Of a stretch of DNA of 60,802 nt, positions 37,519 to 60,324 are shown one piece after another. Numbering within the stretch: the stretch's first letter is position 1; the number at the start of each line of letters is the position of its first letter. The notes under the pieces were generated by a model. It was not told the origin of the DNA. It was given only the letters and a program-made list of their open reading frames with translations, and searched no databases. The position numbers were made by a program, and so were the translations under genes. The stretch covers positions 1 through 60,802 of IMG/VR virus record IMGVR_UViG_3300025127_000031; one strand, written 5' to 3'. Source of the stretch: a virus. Its lineage: Duplodnaviria; Caudoviricetes.

Positions 37519-38682
37519 TCAGACGGAACCGTCATCTTGAATGAAACTGAACGCATTTGTGATGAAATCTTTGTTCAAGATTTCAAAACCAGCATACAAT
37601 TGCCAGATTAAAATGATGAACCTAGAGAAGTCATCGTTGTTGTTAATTAACACTTGCGCGTTCGGTCCACCGATACCAACACCAACAGATTGAGGGCCAA
37701 AGAAGAAGCCTTGGGCAACTTCTTTAGAAGCATAGTTACCACCGCCGTCGAAAGAAGCAGTAACACTCTTAGATGGGAAGTTGGTTGACTCGAAGAACTT
37801 GACGCCTTCAAATTGTACACCAGTCGGCATTACAGGCTCACCAGCCAGGAAGTAGCCCTGACCTGCTTGGGGACCCATGTAGAAGCTGGAGTTGTTAGGC
37901 ATCATGGGGTTAGCCATGTACATGCCTTGACCAGGATTGCCAGCGTAACGGGCGATCTCGCGGAAGTCAGAATCACGACGCAGATGCAGCATGAAGACAG
38001 GATCGCAAATGCAGCGATACAGGCCATCAGCAAAGGTCGGCACGTTGCGCTTACGCAGGTCCTTGACGACTTCTAACAGGTCAGTGCGAACAGAGAACTG
38101 TTGGATTTGGTCACCATACTCATTGGCAGTGTAGGAAACACGTCCAGTAGCATCTTTCTCTTTACCACCAGCAAAGTAGTAACCACCTTGAGAAGCAGAA
38201 GCGGCTCCATTAGCTTCAGCTTTGGCTAATTCGTCAATGAAGACCCGGTCCCTCCAGCGTCGGTAATCATCTAACAGCGTCAAACTTCCTATGCTTTGAT
38301 GGAACATATTCAGGTTGCCCGTGTCAAGCAGCAGGCGCTGCGCAGTGATCAGGGTCTCCCGAGCAATTTTAAAAGTAGAAGGCTGAGTAGGATCACCCGG
38401 GTCCGCAGGACCTGTGTACTCTTTCAGCACAACCAACACTTTCTCTTTAGTGATGTTGCGGCTATTAGCGGTACCAATTGTTTGATCAGCAATACGCTCA
38501 CGAGAGTCCTTTGTACCAGGTGCCCCCCAGAACTTGTAGCGATCCAGTTGCACAGTCTGGCCGGGCTGGGATGTAAAGTCGTGGACGACTACAGGCTCAA
38601 CAGCCATCTCACAAACATAGGCTGGATGCGGACGGTATAATTCCGCGCCTAAAATCTTGGGAAAATCGTTATCAAGAAACAC
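37519..38682 (-). CDS. Major capsid protein
   Basis: 387 aa; GTG start with GGAGG; PGQTVQL, GVKFFESTN and DDFSRF HK97-like motifs; follows portal/scaffold. Confidence 0.85.
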   Translation of the reverse strand: MFLDNDFPKILGAELYRPHPAYVCEMAVEPVVVHDFTSQPGQTVQLDRYKFWGAPGTKDSRERIADQTIGTANSRNITKEKVLVVLKEYTGPADPGDPTQPSTFKIARETLITAQRLLLDTGNLNMFHQSIGSLTLLDDYRRWRDRVFIDELAKAEANGAASASQGGYYFAGGKEKDATGRVSYTANEYGDQIQQFSVRTDLLEVVKDLRKRNVPTFADGLYRCICDPVFMLHLRRDSDFREIARYAGNPGQGMYMANPMMPNNSSFYMGPQAGQGYFLAGEPVMPTGVQFEGVKFFESTNFPSKSVTASFDGGGNYASKEVAQGFFFGPQSVGVGIGGPNAQVLINNNDDFSRFIILIWQLYAGFEILNKDFITNAFSFIQDDGSV

Positions 38683-38792: not shown

Positions 38793-39236
38793 TTAATACA
38801 TTACAGGGTATTGTTGCATGTTCATACGTGATCCAAGGGTATTACTTGAACCTGGCATTTCAGGGTCAATTGCCATCCCTTGTCCTAAAGCTGCACCTCC
38901 CATAGCTCCTAAACCTAAACCGGCTGTTGCTGGTGCGTATTGAGCAGCAATTCCTAAAGGATTGGTTGATAGCATTGCAACTTGTTGCCCTGCTCCACGT
39001 AAACCTTTTTGGACATCACGTGCCAAAAGACCAACACCTCCTAAACCACCTGCTTCCATATTCTTTCCGGGAATATATTCAGCAGCTCTAAACAAACCTT
39101 CAGCAGCTTTCTTTTGGCCTTTAGCTGCTGCAGACTGAACTTGTTTTCTTAGTTGAGGAGCATACCTGCCAGCAAGGCCGCTACCTAAAGCGGCCCCACC
39201 AATGGCACCTCCTGCTCCTAGCAAAAGAGGAAGCAT
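38793..39236 (-). CDS. Gly/Ala-rich hypothetical membrane-active protein
   Basis: Likely ATG 39236; glycine-zipper-like segments. Confidence 0.6.
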   Translation of the reverse strand: MLPLLLGAGGAIGGAALGSGLAGRYAPQLRKQVQSAAAKGQKKAAEGLFRAAEYIPGKNMEAGGLGGVGLLARDVQKGLRGAGQQVAMLSTNPLGIAAQYAPATAGLGLGAMGGAALGQGMAIDPEMPGSSNTLGSRMNMQQYPVMY

Positions 39237-39240
39237 TAGA

Positions 39241-40212
39241 TCACTCCATGACAAAGAGCTTGTTAGCAAACTGACGAGGGTCAGCTTGGTTCACCAAACG
39301 CCAGGCTTGGGAGGGATCAACATCCATCTGTTGTTTAAAGGAACCCCAGAAATCCTGAGGTTGTTGAGGTGCAGCTGCAGCCGGAGGTGCAGGCAGACCA
39401 GCAACATTCATGCCAGCTTGTCCAACAGGAGCGGTCGGATAACCACGAGTTTCCAGGTCAGCTTCAGATTCGTACACAGGGTACGGACCTTCAGGACCAA
39501 AGAACTTCAAGGTGTAATCAGACAGAACGTCAGGATTGGTCAGAATCTGGTTATAGGCAAGGTTTTCCTTATGCTCAGTAACAGAGAAGTTGGCGTAACC
39601 TTTTAAGCAATTAGTTGCCCTTTCTCCCCACGCGACGGCGCTGTCCAGCATCCCTTCCAGATTTAGGGCGTACTGATTCAGAATTGCCGGTGCCTCGGTT
39701 CCGTAGTTTGCTACCACCATCCGGCTTTCCGGACTCCACTCCAGCAGATTCGCCACGTCCTCTAAGGAGTTGATCGAGGAGGTTGGGGAAGAGTTGTTGG
39801 ATGATGTCTGGTTTGTTTGCCAGGTCGGCTGAGCCGATGGTGCCGAGGTTTGTGCCGGGGCTTGTGGTACTCCGTAATTCGCCGGGCTGTATTGAGTCGG
39901 AGAGGATGGTTGACCCTGGAACGGGGATTGCACCGGGCTGCCCAACAGGTTCACCACCTTGTTGAATGCCGACTCCCATGGATTGCCCTGCATTTGGTCC
40001 GAACCCTGGGATGGGGGGACGAATGTTGACGGGGCGGATTGGTAACTGGTAGTCCCCTGAGGTGCGGCCTGGGGAACCGCCTGGGGGTAAAGAGTTCCCA
40101 CTTGGGCCGGGGCTGGAGCTGCCGGTGCTGCCGGTGCTGCCGCCACGTAACTGCTCGGAGCCACTGCGGGTTGGCTCGTCTGTGGGATCGATTGGACGGT
40201 AGCGTCCTGCAT
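39241..40212 (-). CDS. Putative capsid scaffolding protein
   Basis: Pro/Gln/Ala-rich 323 aa between portal and MCP; AAGGAG 7 nt before ATG, inside the portal ORF. Confidence 0.75.
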   Translation of the reverse strand: MQDATVQSIPQTSQPAVAPSSYVAAAPAAPAAPAPAQVGTLYPQAVPQAAPQGTTSYQSAPSTFVPPSQGSDQMQGNPWESAFNKVVNLLGSPVQSPFQGQPSSPTQYSPANYGVPQAPAQTSAPSAQPTWQTNQTSSNNSSPTSSINSLEDVANLLEWSPESRMVVANYGTEAPAILNQYALNLEGMLDSAVAWGERATNCLKGYANFSVTEHKENLAYNQILTNPDVLSDYTLKFFGPEGPYPVYESEADLETRGYPTAPVGQAGMNVAGLPAPPAAAAPQQPQDFWGSFKQQMDVDPSQAWRLVNQADPRQFANKLFVME

Positions 40213-41956
40213 AACTCATCTCCTTTTGTAATGCTTCTAAGGTTCGATACAGATAGGGAGTTAAGTCCAAACGTGGATCTGCCGCCATAGGTAAATCCGG
40301 TGCTTGTGGGTGAGGGGTCTGCATCATTCCCCCCACTAAACGAGAAAACTGGGAATAAGCTCCCTGTAATTCGTTGACCATCCTGAACGGGAAGCCCGAG
40401 AGCATTTCCGCTCTTTCCTCATCGGTTTTTGATGGGAAAAGATATTTCAGTGCTTCTATGCTATCAACTCCTAATTCTTGTAAGTTTCTTACAACAATTG
40501 AATTGTTCAGGATATCTTGTGTTGAATCCTCATAAACAGGACCTAACCAACGCCAAAGCATTGTGATATCTCCATCAGGAATTAAGCCTTTAACCCCTGG
40601 TGGAATCATTTGTGCTTTGACACAAGCCATCATAAGTTGTTTCATGCGGCTGTCAAATTCAGCCATAGCTTGTTGATAACCAGCCTCTTCTTCTGGTGTT
40701 GCTTCTGGTCCAGGGGGCACTGGTTTTTCAAATTGTGCAGCAGCTGCAAGCGTATCTTTAAATAACTGTTCTTCTTGGAAAATAATTAATTCAAGGCAAC
40801 GACATAAACCATGCGTATAAATAGCATTAGCTTTCTTTTTGGCTGTCGCTGAGACACGACCAAATAATGATTTATATTCTGTAGCAGTAACACCTGCTGA
40901 AATTGATAATTCGTCTACACCACCTAATGATGTTCGGATTTCTTCTCGGTATTGCCGCACAAATGCATTTTGATCACCGGAAATTGCATCCGGAACAATA
41001 TAACCAACTCGATCATTTGGCTCCAGATTCGCAATCACTCTTGGGACTCTAATTTGCCCATCAACACCACGGCTGACTGGATCTTGTTTAAACGTTGAAC
41101 GACTTAATCCAAGGGGACTAGTAAAGCCTGAATTGGCTGCAATAGAAGGACGTTGTGCTGCTCCATCACCACCTGACTCCATCAAGTCAGTTTTAGGCCT
41201 GGATGATAATAAGGTTGGATTACCAAAGAACTGTAAGTTCTTTCGCATGTTATTAACTAAACCATCATGGATAACAATATGATTTGCTAAAGCATCAAAC
41301 TCTCCACTGCCTTCCATAGAGAACCCTTTCGGATTATTGAAAATTTCTACGCAAGGAATAAAACGAAGTGCATTGGTAAACTTTTCAGTTTTACCAGGGA
41401 CTTGTCCCATTGCATTTTCAAACGAAATTTCTCCGTCTGAATGAGTCTCTTCAATAACGTTTGCTTTAATTGAAAGACGAATATATTTCTTTTGTCCTGG
41501 TGTTTGGTTTGGATCACCAGTTAAATTGTACGTACCAATATCTTGAAAACCTGTATTAGGTTTTTTGACTTTATAGCTGTAAATAATGACAACCTCTTCT
41601 AGTTCACCATCGACATTGTAATAAGAGCGATACTCATGATTACGAAAATAATAGAGACGATAATTATTTTCAGTAGGCCGGATATAAAACAGTCCTTTTC
41701 CATCACATAGGAAATAGTCCCATATTGAATCAAGGCGAGTATCTAGTTTGTTATATTTGACAACTTTATCGATAAAATCTTTGCGTTGTGCACCAAAGTT
41801 GTCTTGTGACGGAAAGAACTCAACTCCTTGGCGAATACCAAAGAGTTTCATTTGAGCGATATGAGACGCAACAATTCCCGTATCTACATTAGAACTTCCA
41901 TCTCGATCGATGTAAGAATCAATAATTTCCTTAAGACGAGACTTAGCGTCAGACAT
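39611..41956 (-). CDS. Portal protein with ~200-aa C-terminal extension overlapping the scaffold gene
   Basis: Position between terminase and scaffold; FIPCVEIFNN, FFGNP and ITMLWRW portal-like motifs. Confidence 0.8.
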   Translation of the reverse strand: MSDAKSRLKEIIDSYIDRDGSSNVDTGIVASHIAQMKLFGIRQGVEFFPSQDNFGAQRKDFIDKVVKYNKLDTRLDSIWDYFLCDGKGLFYIRPTENNYRLYYFRNHEYRSYYNVDGELEEVVIIYSYKVKKPNTGFQDIGTYNLTGDPNQTPGQKKYIRLSIKANVIEETHSDGEISFENAMGQVPGKTEKFTNALRFIPCVEIFNNPKGFSMEGSGEFDALANHIVIHDGLVNNMRKNLQFFGNPTLLSSRPKTDLMESGGDGAAQRPSIAANSGFTSPLGLSRSTFKQDPVSRGVDGQIRVPRVIANLEPNDRVGYIVPDAISGDQNAFVRQYREEIRTSLGGVDELSISAGVTATEYKSLFGRVSATAKKKANAIYTHGLCRCLELIIFQEEQLFKDTLAAAAQFEKPVPPGPEATPEEEAGYQQAMAEFDSRMKQLMMACVKAQMIPPGVKGLIPDGDITMLWRWLGPVYEDSTQDILNNSIVVRNLQELGVDSIEALKYLFPSKTDEERAEMLSGFPFRMVNELQGAYSQFSRLVGGMMQTPHPQAPDLPMAADPRLDLTPYLYRTLEALQKEMSYAGRYRPIDPTDEPTRSGSEQLRGGSTGSTGSSSPGPSGNSLPPGGSPGRTSGDYQLPIRPVNIRPPIPGFGPNAGQSMGVGIQQGGEPVGQPGAIPVPGSTILSDSIQPGELRSTTSPGTNLGTIGSADLANKPDIIQQLFPNLLDQLLRGRGESAGVESGKPDGGSKLRNRGTGNSESVRPKSGRDAGQRRRVGRKGN

Positions 41957-43520: not shown

Positions 43521-43741
43521 TTGGAAAGGATCTTTTCCACAAGTTTATCAAGTTTATTATTAATTTCACTAAACTCATCATTCATTCTTTCCATCTCTCG
43601 TATATAATCTTGTTTTAAAACGTATTCAAGGGGTAGTCGATCAATGCGATCTTCTAGGCTACGCATTCGACCAAAGACTTTACTAATAAACCAACCGCCA
43701 CCAGAGACAGCTGCAATACCTAAAGCTACGAGTTGTTCCAT
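43517..43741 (-). CDS. Small TM plus coiled-coil protein
   Basis: ATG overlaps the terminase stop (TAATG); MEQLVALGIAAVSGGGW... Confidence 0.6.
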   Translation of the reverse strand: MEQLVALGIAAVSGGGWFISKVFGRMRSLEDRIDRLPLEYVLKQDYIREMERMNDEFSEINNKLDKLVEKILSK

Positions 43742-45267
43742 TAGTAATCCAACTGGAGTTTTCCTTTGCGAGTTAATCCTGTAATAAGCCATACCAATGC
43801 ATCAACACAGTCATCATGAGAGCTAACGCCAAAATTTGTAAGCTCTTCAAACATTGTCGTAAAGTTTCGGTATCTGTTAAATACTATTTTACGGTCTTCA
43901 AACATTCCCATGATTCCACGAAAACGTGCAAGTTTATCTGCTCTGAAGCCTTTGACAGGATGCCAAATTAAATTATACAAACCCTCATTATTTAAACAAA
44001 TACGTTTAAAGTCAGCTTCTAAAGAAGCCTGGTATTGCACAGCTTCTGACCAAATATCACACGTTGAATATGTTGGAAAATATGTACCATCTTCTTGACA
44101 ACCAATGACTGACCAGTCATTAAGAAGCTCTTTTAATGCATCTAATTTTTCTAGGTTACCCATAACACGTAACCTTCTGTAATCAATAATATGGATTTTA
44201 TCGCCAATTCGCCCACCAAGAACCATGACGGTATAGTCATTTTTCTCTTTGGTACCTGCAGAAAGGTCAACTCCAATACCAAGTGTGTCAAATTCGGTTG
44301 CAATTTCTGCTTTTACTAGTAACTCTGGTGCCAGGGACAGCTCATTTTGCCTGACAATTTGATTCATATATTGAAAAGAAAAAGCAATAGGGGCTTGCCT
44401 CTTCTTCTCTTTTAGATAATCTAAGGACCACATTGCAGGCCAATATGACTCCTCTTCGCCCGTTACGTCATTATTTAAAATGGCAGAAAGGACAATCTGC
44501 ATCCAGTTATTATTTGGACAGAACGTGGTCGAATGAATGTCATCATGACGGAAGCGTGTACCAAGACAAATCGCACGACCTCCTTCAAACATCGTTGGAG
44601 CAATCACGGCGTTCCAGTTATCCTGCATCATCTTGCGGATGTCTGGGTTGCCAATATCTGAAGCAGATTTTATTGGGTCATCAATTATCACAAGTTGAGA
44701 ACGTTTTGAAGTCACAGAACCCTTGAGTCCTGCGGCACATAAAGTAAACTGTTCTTCACCTGTTGTATCAATACCAGCAAATTTATGGTCGATAGACCAG
44801 TATTCATTACTTGTAACGTTTTTGAGCAACTTAACGGTAGGGAATACCTCTTGATATTTTTTTGATTCAATAATTCGTTTGATTGTTGCTGATTTAGATC
44901 TTGCAATGTCAACCGTATAACTCAAATAAAGAATTTGTAATGGTTTTTTTGCTTGTGTATGAATACCAATAGCCCAAGCAGTAAATAAACCAAGTACTGT
45001 AGATTTAGCTGATCCTCTAGGACCAAGTAAATCAATATTGGGACCGGCAATTTTTAAAAGGCAAGAGCTATCATTATTTGTTACAAGTTGTTTATGCCAT
45101 TCTTTATGGTGTTCTGCTGGAGGTTTATCGGCTACATAAGAACAAAAAAAACCAAAATCTTCTCTAGCTTTCTCAAATAACTCTTCTTTACTGCTTTTAC
45201 GAACTTTATGTTTTTTCGCAGCAGCCTGTGCGTTACGTCGGTAAGCTAGATGAAGATGAGAAGGCAC
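43741..45267 (-). CDS. terL: Terminase large subunit
   Basis: Walker A PRGSAKST, Walker B IIDDP, GTRF..DD, nuclease GVDLS..DYT and HDDCVDA. Confidence 0.93.
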   Translation of the reverse strand: MPSHLHLAYRRNAQAAAKKHKVRKSSKEELFEKAREDFGFFCSYVADKPPAEHHKEWHKQLVTNNDSSCLLKIAGPNIDLLGPRGSAKSTVLGLFTAWAIGIHTQAKKPLQILYLSYTVDIARSKSATIKRIIESKKYQEVFPTVKLLKNVTSNEYWSIDHKFAGIDTTGEEQFTLCAAGLKGSVTSKRSQLVIIDDPIKSASDIGNPDIRKMMQDNWNAVIAPTMFEGGRAICLGTRFRHDDIHSTTFCPNNNWMQIVLSAILNNDVTGEEESYWPAMWSLDYLKEKKRQAPIAFSFQYMNQIVRQNELSLAPELLVKAEIATEFDTLGIGVDLSAGTKEKNDYTVMVLGGRIGDKIHIIDYRRLRVMGNLEKLDALKELLNDWSVIGCQEDGTYFPTYSTCDIWSEAVQYQASLEADFKRICLNNEGLYNLIWHPVKGFRADKLARFRGIMGMFEDRKIVFNRYRNFTTMFEELTNFGVSSHDDCVDALVWLITGLTRKGKLQLDY

Positions 45268-59565: not shown

Positions 59566-59922
59566 ATGACTACCCTTCACTTGCTGTCTCATGCTGACAG
59601 CTTCATCACTGCTGCCATGCGTCTTTACGCAATTGGCGGCGAACTATTCAACATCACAGCCATTCTGTTTTGTTTGAATTTCATGGCGAATCTTATTCGT
59701 CACACCTACAATGCTGGCTACCAAGTAGGCAAGTTCTACCGTAGACATCTACATAAACCACTGCGATGGTTATTTGTACACGCTATTGCTCTGATCATCT
59801 TGCTTACTCAACTTGCTTGGGAAGGAGCAGTAGTGGTCTATACCAATCGCCAAGAGATCTATGATGCTTGTGCTCATGCATGGCATCAACTTGAACGTCA
59901 ATTCGTTTACGAATACGCTTAA
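59566..59922 (+). CDS. Early membrane protein
   Basis: 118 aa with two hydrophobic segments. Confidence 0.65.
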   Translation: MTTLHLLSHADSFITAAMRLYAIGGELFNITAILFCLNFMANLIRHTYNAGYQVGKFYRRHLHKPLRWLFVHAIALIILLTQLAWEGAVVVYTNRQEIYDACAHAWHQLERQFVYEYA

Positions 59923-59925
59923 GTT

Positions 59926-59959
59926 ACCTGGGCAGCACATCTGTGTGTAAGTCCCAGGT
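59926..59959 (+). ncRNA. Cassette F: intergenic hairpin with asymmetric internal loop
   Basis: ACCTGGG-CA-GCACA-TCTG-TGTGT-AAGT-CCCAGGT. Confidence 0.55.
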
Positions 59960-59986
59960 TTCAACTCACTTCTTTTCAAATGATTC

Positions 59987-60139
59987 ATGGAAAGCTACAA
60001 AGTCATCATGGAACACTGGCACACAGAACAATCCATTTTTCTTACAGTCGAAGACTGTAAAGATATGGATGAGTGCATAACCCATGTCAAAGAAGAGTGC
60101 CCTGAGCACATTATTGTTCAAATCTCACGCATCAAATGA
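59987..60139 (+). CDS. Early small protein (50 aa)
   Basis: Missed by ORF track; ATGA-coupled to the next gene. Confidence 0.55.
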   Translation: MESYKVIMEHWHTEQSIFLTVEDCKDMDECITHVKEECPEHIIVQISRIK

Positions 60140-60324
60140 CTTATTCATTAAACAGAGTTGATCTTACTGAGGATGAGCAGAAATGTATCTTACATTTTCT
60201 GCGAGAGGCTGAGGGGTGTGGCTATCCTTCAGCCAATGAGCCTTGGTATTCCACCATTAACTCAATCTTCCGAAAGTATTACGCCACTCAAATTCAAGAA
60301 GCTCAACCATGGCAAACACTATGA
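60136..60324 (+). CDS. Early hypothetical protein
   Basis: 62 aa; ATGA-coupled. Confidence 0.6.
   Translation: MTYSLNRVDLTEDEQKCILHFLREAEGCGYPSANEPWYSTINSIFRKYYATQIQEAQPWQTL

Follow-up and report, generated by a model that had tools for sequence, protein, structure and literature searches.

A family-wide same-strand overlap, probably dual-coding, between portal and scaffold-like genes of phages related to Synechococcus phage S-EIVl

The overlapping genes

IMG/VR record IMGVR_UViG_3300025127_000031, a Synechococcus phage S-EIV1-like virus of 60,802 bases with an estimated completeness of 76%, was analysed over its whole length (hereafter ‘the window’). On its minus strand a portal gene of 781 aa and the open reading frame (ORF) of a scaffold-like gene of 323 aa run over one another for 602 nt, the portal stop included, the second gene lying in the +1 frame relative to the first (Table 1). 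A scaffold residue within the overlap thus has the number of its portal counterpart, p, minus 581. The initial annotation, made from the letters of the window, had drawn attention to this overlap, and both ORFs and their coordinates are borne out by the ORF listing. We argue here that the locus is very probably a real and ancient dual-coding region, in which the portal tail and the scaffold N-terminus are read from the same ~600 bases and both frames are kept by selection.

The overlap also stands out in composition. Its GC content is 0.56–0.64 in 300-nt windows, vs. 0.40–0.45 in the upstream portal core, and both products are of low complexity within it, Gly (19%), Pro (12%), Ser (12%) and Arg (9%) being prominent in the portal tail and Ala (15%), Ser (14%), Pro (13%) and Gln (11%) in the scaffold N-terminus; GC windows and residue composition agree here with what the initial annotation had noticed by eye.

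The identity of the upstream gene as a portal is supported by fold and gene order. The large terminase gene lies upstream of it and the capsid gene downstream (Table 1), and the order of genes in S-EIVl likewise points to a head module. Its product matches PHROG 20475 (E = 2.8e-267, the profile covering aa 3–727), a family described as ‘virion structural protein’ and not named portal; against curated portal families it had no Pfam match at E ≤ 0.01, and there was no PDB sequence match. An AlphaFold model built on a 60-sequence alignment has a predicted local distance difference test score (pLDDT) of ~90 over residues 1–590, and a Foldseek search with this model returned 164 PDB matches at E ≤ 0.001. 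The top matches listed are all phage portals at probability 1.00; the best is 9m6k_A (E = 7.5e-11), and others include NF5, phiCD508, SaPI1/80alpha, T7, SPP1 and lambda. The 781-aa protein is therefore predicted to have a portal fold.

The downstream gene comes after that of the portal and ahead of that of the major capsid protein, and no protease gene lies between those two in the window. For its product, searches of Pfam, PHROG, PDB sequences, the ESM Atlas and BFVD folds returned no relative of known function, only the homologue in S-EIVl. Its homologues align across the four clades considered below (34-sequence alignment). The predicted structure has a mean pLDDT of 54, with residues 1–147 disordered save for a helix at 78–91, and with further helices at 150–238 and 288–322. 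Phage scaffolding proteins are elongated and helical, with a C-terminal helix-turn-helix that binds coat protein; in this low-confidence model the helices at 150–238 and 288–322 would be the candidates for such an architecture.

Table 1. Features of the portal/scaffold-like locus, in positions of the window (SD, Shine-Dalgarno).
Feature	Positions	Strand	Remarks
Portal gene	41956..39611	minus	781 aa; core ~residues 1–596 (40169..41956), C-terminal tail ~597–781
Scaffold-like gene	40212..39241	minus	323-aa ORF, +1 frame relative to portal
Dual-coding overlap	39611..40212	minus	602 nt including portal stop; portal residues 582–781 and scaffold residues 1–200
SD-like AAGGAG	40225..40220	minus	7 nt before scaffold ATG; within portal K-E codons
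In-frame TGA	40218..40216	minus	two codons upstream of scaffold ATG
Scaffold start ATG	40212..40210	minus	made of portal TAT (Tyr582) and the next G
Scaffold motif NPWESAFNKVVNLL	39943..39984	minus	scaffold residues 77–90, predicted helix; over weakly conserved Gly-rich portal linker
Portal tail motif IPVPGST	39908..39928	minus	portal residues 677–683; local pLDDT 60–65
Portal tail motif IGSADLANKPDIIQQLFPNLLDQLL	39764..39838	minus	portal residues 707–731, predicted amphipathic helix; over Ser/Thr/Asn-rich scaffold linker ~128–150
Basic portal end and stop	39611..39763	minus	portal residues 732–781; over start of scaffold helical domain
Major capsid protein	37519..38682	minus	387 aa; downstream; phrog_1357, E = 9e-15
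Large terminase	43741..45267	minus	508 aa; upstream of portal

Conservation of the overlap among relatives

A scan of IMG/VR with the portal confirmed at least 592 relatives among at least 598 matching stretches, of which the best 80 were kept. For the clade of the window (clade 1), 82 sources were used, namely 81 loci plus the window. The scaffold start (MQDA...) is present in all 82; both ORFs are complete in 77, and in every one of these they overlap, by 506–644 nt (median 593); unique sequences number 69. Beyond clade 1 the analysis covered three further clades (clades 2–4), with portals 44–55% identical to that of the window. A search of 1.84 billion cluster representatives found 311 portal relatives at E ≤ 0.001, which were reused as queries. 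In clade 2, whose portals are ~50% identical to that of the window, the +1 overlap was found in 70 of the 73 loci with complete portals (449–536 open nt); of the three misses, one locus ends just past the portal and two are ORFs mis-picked by the script. A further set, made up of 63 loci at 52–55% portal identity and 14 of the window's clade, has the overlap throughout (77/77; 464–626 open nt), and a metagenome set with portals mostly 43–51% identical (37% in L240 and L241) has it in 74 of 77 (461–623 open nt), the misses being contig ends. Wherever the locus of a relative extends far enough, the overlap is open, a point on which the initial annotation had made its reading depend. The frame relation is constant across the family, and overlap length tracks the length of the portal tail. 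The lineage is abundant in aquatic metagenomes, with 2137 protein-cluster matches in addition to the IMG/VR stretches.

In the phage collection, the only relative from an isolate is Synechococcus phage S-EIVl (KJ410740), whose portal and scaffold-like protein are 70.6% and 62.6% identical to those of the window. Both long ORFs are open in its genome, with an open overlap of 554 nt.

At greater distance, a group with portals ~30% identical to that of the window (L320–L328) has a +1 overlap in all nine loci, measuring 65, 179, 305, 317, 338 and 398 nt in the six that are distinct. Homology between the downstream ORF of this group and the scaffold-like protein of the window was not shown (hhalign probability 13.9%). 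In these distant portals the shorter overlap goes in step with a shorter tail, which gives the appearance of an evolutionary series in overlap length. Short-tailed or tail-less portals with which to root this history (P0131, P0126, P0190) gave no IMG/VR loci.

Openness of the two frames

Two ORFs of this length over the same bases are more than composition explains. In eight of the 69 unique clade-1 sequences, 5000 shuffles of synonymous codons were drawn per sequence while the protein of one frame was held constant. Given the scaffold protein and a permutation of its own codons, the probability that the portal frame stays open is 0.002 in the window and 0.0014–0.097 over the eight sequences; with the codon usage of the genes outside the overlap, the portal frame was open in 0/5000 shuffles for seven of the eight, the window among them. 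In the reverse direction, given the portal protein, the scaffold frame of the window is open with a probability of 0.009 (permuted) or 0.022 (background usage), the range being 0.0002–0.031. Across the four clades the third sense frame carries a mean of 4.3–6.3 stops over the overlap and never fewer than one, and the antisense frames carry 2.2–11.4.

The way in which portal-frame stops are escaped can be seen in the scaffold codons, which according to the initial annotation avoid T before AA, AG or GA. This avoidance holds without exception: T-ending codons make up 0/34 in such contexts within the window's overlap and 0/2185 across the 69 unique relatives, vs. 23/165 in the other contexts of the window's overlap and 12/26 before AA, AG or GA in the part of the window's scaffold gene outside it.

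Start and stop signals

The downstream ORF appears to have a translation start of its own. The initial annotation had pointed to an ATG with its own AAGGAG, and both are found where they would be expected, close behind an in-frame stop (Table 1). The start block CAAAAGGAGATGAG[T/C]TATGCAGGACGCT is unchanged across the 69 unique relatives, one third position excepted; it includes several portal-synonymous sites that are nonetheless fixed, whereas synonymous sites just upstream vary freely. The homologous start position holds an ATG in clades 3 and 4 and, one codon downstream, a GTG in clade 2, and a stop lies 1–2 codons upstream of the scaffold-frame start in all four clades. The SD-like sequence is weaker in the clades other than that of the window.

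These signals bear on the possibility that only the portal reading matters, the second gene beginning after the portal stop as a protein of 133 aa and the frame upstream of it being open by chance. This is how the GenBank record of S-EIVl has it: the second gene is annotated at 59863..60264 only, behind the portal stop, and the overlap is not recorded. The weaker SD-like sequences of the other clades could be read in the same way. A chance opening, however, does not account for a start block fixed at portal-synonymous sites, for a homologous start with a stop just upstream in four clades, or for a NPWESAFNKVVNLL-type motif present in all clades; nor does it fit the low probability that the scaffold frame is open given the portal protein, or the constraint on the scaffold frame over its first 150 codons (see below). 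We consider this alternative exceedingly unlikely.

Since the scaffold gene of every clade begins within the portal ORF, some interplay between elongating and initiating ribosomes is unavoidable, and one could suppose that the overlap is kept mainly for regulation, with portal ribosomes that cross the scaffold start setting the portal:scaffold ratio and the tail sequence being secondary. Coupling of this kind needs an overlap of the start region only, however, not one of 450–640 nt, and it leaves unexplained both the selection that the portal frame shows at a motif 125 codons downstream and the family-wide basic end of the portal. As the main reason for the overlap we therefore regard regulation as very unlikely; translational coupling may act in addition to dual coding.

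A portal–scaffold fusion by frameshifting, which the initial annotation had also thought conceivable, finds no support. Frameshift products do occur in phage structural genes (T7 10A/10B, tail chaperones G/GT), and a pair of long frames open on one strand gives the geometry needed to join either the portal core to the scaffold by a +1 slip or the scaffold N-terminus to the portal tail by a −1 slip. Yet an XXXYYYZ heptamer in the scaffold frame is absent from the overlap of the window and from all sequences of clades 2–4 (0/185), and is present in 24/69 of clade 1; a −1 slip from the portal frame enters the third frame, which has stops, and not the scaffold frame; and the two frames each possess a start or stop, and conserved motifs, of their own. 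The search covered −1 heptamers, +1 sites, which lack a simple pattern, not being searched. We give programmed frameshifting hardly any credence as an account of the locus.

At the opposite end of the overlap, the portal stop occupies eight different alignment columns among the 69 sequences, 34 of which share that of the window. It always lies downstream of the helix motif IGSADLANKPDIIQQLFPNLLDQLL, the three shortest tails stopping 10–12 residues past it.

One candidate for a further signal was rejected. An internal promoter of the scaffold gene could have been supplied by a sigma-70-like site, TTGACA-16-TATGAT at 40656..40629 (minus strand; 11 of 12 positions matching), some 420 nt ahead of the scaffold start. 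The −35 box of this site, however, lacks conservation among the 69 relatives, and such sites occur at shuffle level (7 vs. 6.0). The −10 box coincides with conserved Met-Met codons of the portal gene.

Selection in the two frames

Diversity at codon positions 1/2/3 in clade 1 is 0.18/0.11/0.50 in the portal core and 0.21/0.15/0.50 in the non-overlapping part of the scaffold gene. Within the overlap, counted in the scaffold frame, it is 0.17/0.20/0.37, a scaffold-type periodicity with a damped position 3 and with positions 1 and 2 in inverted order. The region of NPWESAFNKVVNLL is of plain scaffold type (0.11/0.08/0.33). In sliding windows the periodicity turns to the portal frame at scaffold-alignment codons ~150–186, which correspond to the portal motif IGSADLANKPDIIQQLFPNLLDQLL, and only there.

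Ratios of nonsynonymous to synonymous change (dN/dS) of the OLGenie type were obtained from 800 random pairs of the 69 clade-1 sequences, with 1000 codon bootstraps (intervals in parentheses). Over the whole overlap the scaffold-frame ratio (dNN/dSN) is 0.27 (0.21–0.34) and the portal-frame ratio (dNN/dNS) 0.77 (0.61–0.96), to be set against phantom-frame controls from the non-overlap regions of 0.91 (0.79–1.03) for the scaffold type and 1.42 (1.07–1.88) for the portal type; the real frames in those regions give 0.15 (scaffold) and 0.07 (portal). The overlap is not uniform in this respect. Scaffold-alignment codons 0–150 have a scaffold-frame ratio of 0.24 and a portal-frame ratio of 0.70 (0.53–0.91); the helix motif segment has 0.49 (0.28–0.81) in the scaffold frame and 0.30 (0.14–0.51) in the portal frame, the latter being 0.27–0.30 over analyses; and the last ~58 alignment codons (186–244) have 0.21 in the scaffold frame and 1.79 (1.12–3.0) in the portal frame, the latter being 1.79–1.82 over analyses. 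In clades 2, 3 and 4 the portal-frame ratios are 0.66, 0.50 and 0.63, vs. phantom values of 1.36, 1.54 and 1.64, and the scaffold-frame ratios 0.43, 0.31 and 0.50, vs. 0.80, 0.72 and 0.85. The selection results did not change when the alignment was guided by the portal or when other subsets of pairs were taken.

Synonymous change is damped in both frames, a signature that the initial annotation had named in advance: the scaffold-synonymous distance falls from 1.49 outside the overlap to 0.67 within it, and the portal-synonymous distance from 2.06 to 0.23. Taken together, codon shuffles, codon-position diversity and the OLGenie-type ratios show that each of the two frames is under purifying selection in all four clades, synonymous rates being lowered.

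Constraint over the overlap is a mosaic, in which the conserved motif of each protein lies over the disordered linker of the other. The stop positions, together with the ratio in the last segment, suggest that the portal must be read through its helix motif and that the sequence beyond is free; the well-conserved scaffold helical domain, which begins at ~150, shares its DNA with this free basic portal end. As to which frame came first, relative synonymous codon usage in the overlap correlates with that outside it at 0.04–0.23 in the portal frame, near zero, and at −0.13 to −0.53 in the scaffold frame; this leans weakly, and inconclusively, towards the portal frame as the older one.

Several points weigh against the dual-coding interpretation. 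The name ‘scaffold’ comes from gene position and a low-confidence helical model, and the translation of both overlapped segments is deduced here from sequence alone. The pairs used for dN/dS are phylogenetically related while the bootstraps resample codons only, so that the intervals are too narrow given the shared ancestry; and because OLGenie-type ratios are biased, it is the phantom-frame controls that we rely on, not a value of 1. The first third of the overlap is of low complexity, and as its Ala, Pro and Gln codons cannot make portal-frame stops, openness there costs nothing. Finally, the last ~50 portal codons are without purifying selection at the sequence level, their ratio not lying below the phantom control.

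The last two points, along with an overall codon periodicity that follows the scaffold frame, are also what speaks for the view that the scaffold reading alone is of consequence, the portal frame simply meeting no stop in GC-rich, low-complexity DNA and the extension being without function. Set against this view are the rarity of an open portal frame among codon shuffles and the complete lack of T in the dangerous contexts of the relatives; the portal-frame periodicity and low dN/dS of the helix motif; portal-frame ratios below the phantom control in four clades; tail motifs and a basic end that are kept in relatives of 35–50% identity; and, among the 69 clade-1 sequences, a portal stop that is never upstream of the motif. 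A functionless extension is in our judgement most improbable, and selection on both products the far better account.

The portal tail and its possible role

The portal model is consistent with the disordered tail that the initial annotation had proposed: pLDDT falls below 50 over residues 595–781 apart from two short motifs, the IPVPGST region (~60–65) and the helices at 710–733 (61–73). The amphipathic helix motif can be written ADLxxKPDIIQQLFPNLLDQLL. Related motifs recur in distant relatives. Of 44 distant representatives, 28 have a PxPG[GSATV][TSAV] pattern within their last 200 aa, and 22 have a hydrophobic-aromatic-Pro motif of the QLFPN/QLFPTF type. The C-terminus of the window's portal reads ...QRRRVGRKGN, a basic stretch already singled out in the initial annotation, and the net charge of its last 30 residues is +8. 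Basic ends prove to be family-wide: across the four clades, 247 of 254 sequences carry a net charge of at least +3 on their last 20 residues, as do 43 of 44 distant representatives (of at least 680 aa), against a mean of about −0.5 per 20 residues in the portal core. The three clade-1 exceptions are presumably the three shortest tails. A basic end of this kind would fit contact with DNA or with an acidic partner.

The tail as a whole, with its disordered linker, motifs and basic end, recurs in relatives down to ~35% identity. The term ‘overprinted’ in the initial annotation, which implies that the tail is a newcomer, is not supported.

We propose that the scaffold-like protein would initiate at its own SD and ATG, among the final conserved codons of the portal core, while ribosomes in the portal frame would read on for 200 further codons, so that a single stretch of mRNA would yield two proteins, each initiated independently. 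The portal tail would then consist of ~110 disordered Gly/Pro/Ser residues, IPVPGST, the amphipathic helix and a basic, variable end, and the first 200 residues of the scaffold-like protein of a disordered Ala/Pro/Gln/Ser region, the helix NPWESAFNKVVNLL and the start of the helical domain. The overlap would be tolerable because both segments are mostly disordered linkers, and the constraints would interleave rather than collide because each motif lies over the linker of the other protein.

In solved portals such as those of P22, T7 and SPP1 the C-termini leave the crown on the side of the capsid interior. If those of the present portal likewise emerge into the capsid lumen, twelve such tails would be flexible interior tethers in the capsid or procapsid. 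Their helices would dock on an assembly partner, whether scaffold, capsid protein or an internal protein, and the basic tips would touch DNA or an acidic surface. Our best guess is that the tail may serve in procapsid nucleation or partner capture and later in DNA contact. A complex prediction of the full-length scaffold (alignment A3) with portal tail residues 665–781 scored 0.00, which is no evidence either way. One can go further and picture twelve scaffold-like portal arms, each a long flexible tether with a docking helix and a basic tip, that seize capsid or scaffold subunits so that the shell starts from the portal vertex, and that come to rest on the packaged DNA afterwards. The shared DNA would then lock co-adapted, interacting segments against recombination, and the overlap would have grown stepwise from ~65 to ~640 nt with the lengthening of the arm; this fuller scenario we hold to be unlikely.

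Neighbouring genes and the annotation of S-EIVl

Between the scaffold-like and capsid genes of the window lies a Gly/Ala-rich ORF of 158 aa (38793..39269, minus strand), which is conserved in S-EIVl (locus L001, 6724..7200) and has no family in Pfam or PHROG. In its longest form, with a TTG start, it would overlap the end of the scaffold gene by 29 nt; an ATG 11 codons in, just beyond the scaffold stop, looks more likely to be the start.

In S-EIVl, a GTG-started ORF of 383 aa (L001 7239..8465; KJ410740 60784..62010) is homologous to the major capsid protein of the window, and over the same stretch the GenBank record annotates one minus-strand and a short plus-strand coding sequence. The capsid gene of S-EIVl looks mis-annotated, as does its truncated scaffold-like gene. 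The S-EIVl large terminase (846 aa; L001 535..3075) aligns to the 508-aa terminase of the window only over residues 1–200 and 532–846 and so carries a 331-aa insertion missing from the window, possibly an intein or an insert of the homing-endonuclease type.

Comparison with known systems

Dual-frame selection over a long overlap is commonly seen as a trait of tiny viruses, and in tailed double-stranded DNA (dsDNA) phages any overlap beyond a few bases is generally put down to faulty annotation. Among the dsDNA tailed phages, the Rz/Rz1 spanin genes of lambda and 18.5/18.7 of T7 are +1-frame overlaps of which both products are functional. Rz1, however, is fully embedded, in an overlap of less than 200 nt within the lysis module, whereas the overlap described here is terminal, spans 450–640 nt and joins portal and scaffold-like genes. 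The portal itself invites comparison with the barrel of the P22 portal, a C-terminal extension that runs past the crown into the capsid as a long structured helix. Extra C-terminal sequence is common to both, but for the phages studied here disorder is predicted, broken by two short motifs and followed by a basic end, and no sequence relation to the P22 barrel was found in Pfam and PDB sequence searches.

The case matters in three ways. The second gene is cut short by gene callers and in the GenBank entry for the isolate; the locus offers a natural case of how two disordered segments can share codons; and it points to an undescribed, conserved portal tail with testable motifs. A literature search over titles and the starts of abstracts of the papers listed found no description of a portal–scaffold overlap, the original S-EIV1 description not being covered.

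Overlapping viral genes that encode disordered proteins are well known (Rancurel et al., 2009; Willis and Masel, 2018, as summarised in Pavesi, 2021, PMC8227390), and the present locus resembles that class in being a same-strand, terminal, shifted-frame overlap with disorder-promoting residues in both products, damped synonymous change and alternating constraint. The viruses treated in that literature are mostly small RNA or single-stranded DNA viruses of less than 30 kb, whereas the present lineage is one of dsDNA tailed phages of ~80 kb, judging by S-EIVl (79178 bp); and, unlike the examples there, both partners are old core head-assembly genes, with no clear ‘de novo’ partner. The depth of conservation, down to portal identities of 30–37%, is likewise unusual. 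We regard the overlap as a new and well-supported case of a known kind, that of viral overlapping genes for disordered segments, in an unusual setting, the head-assembly genes of a tailed dsDNA phage.

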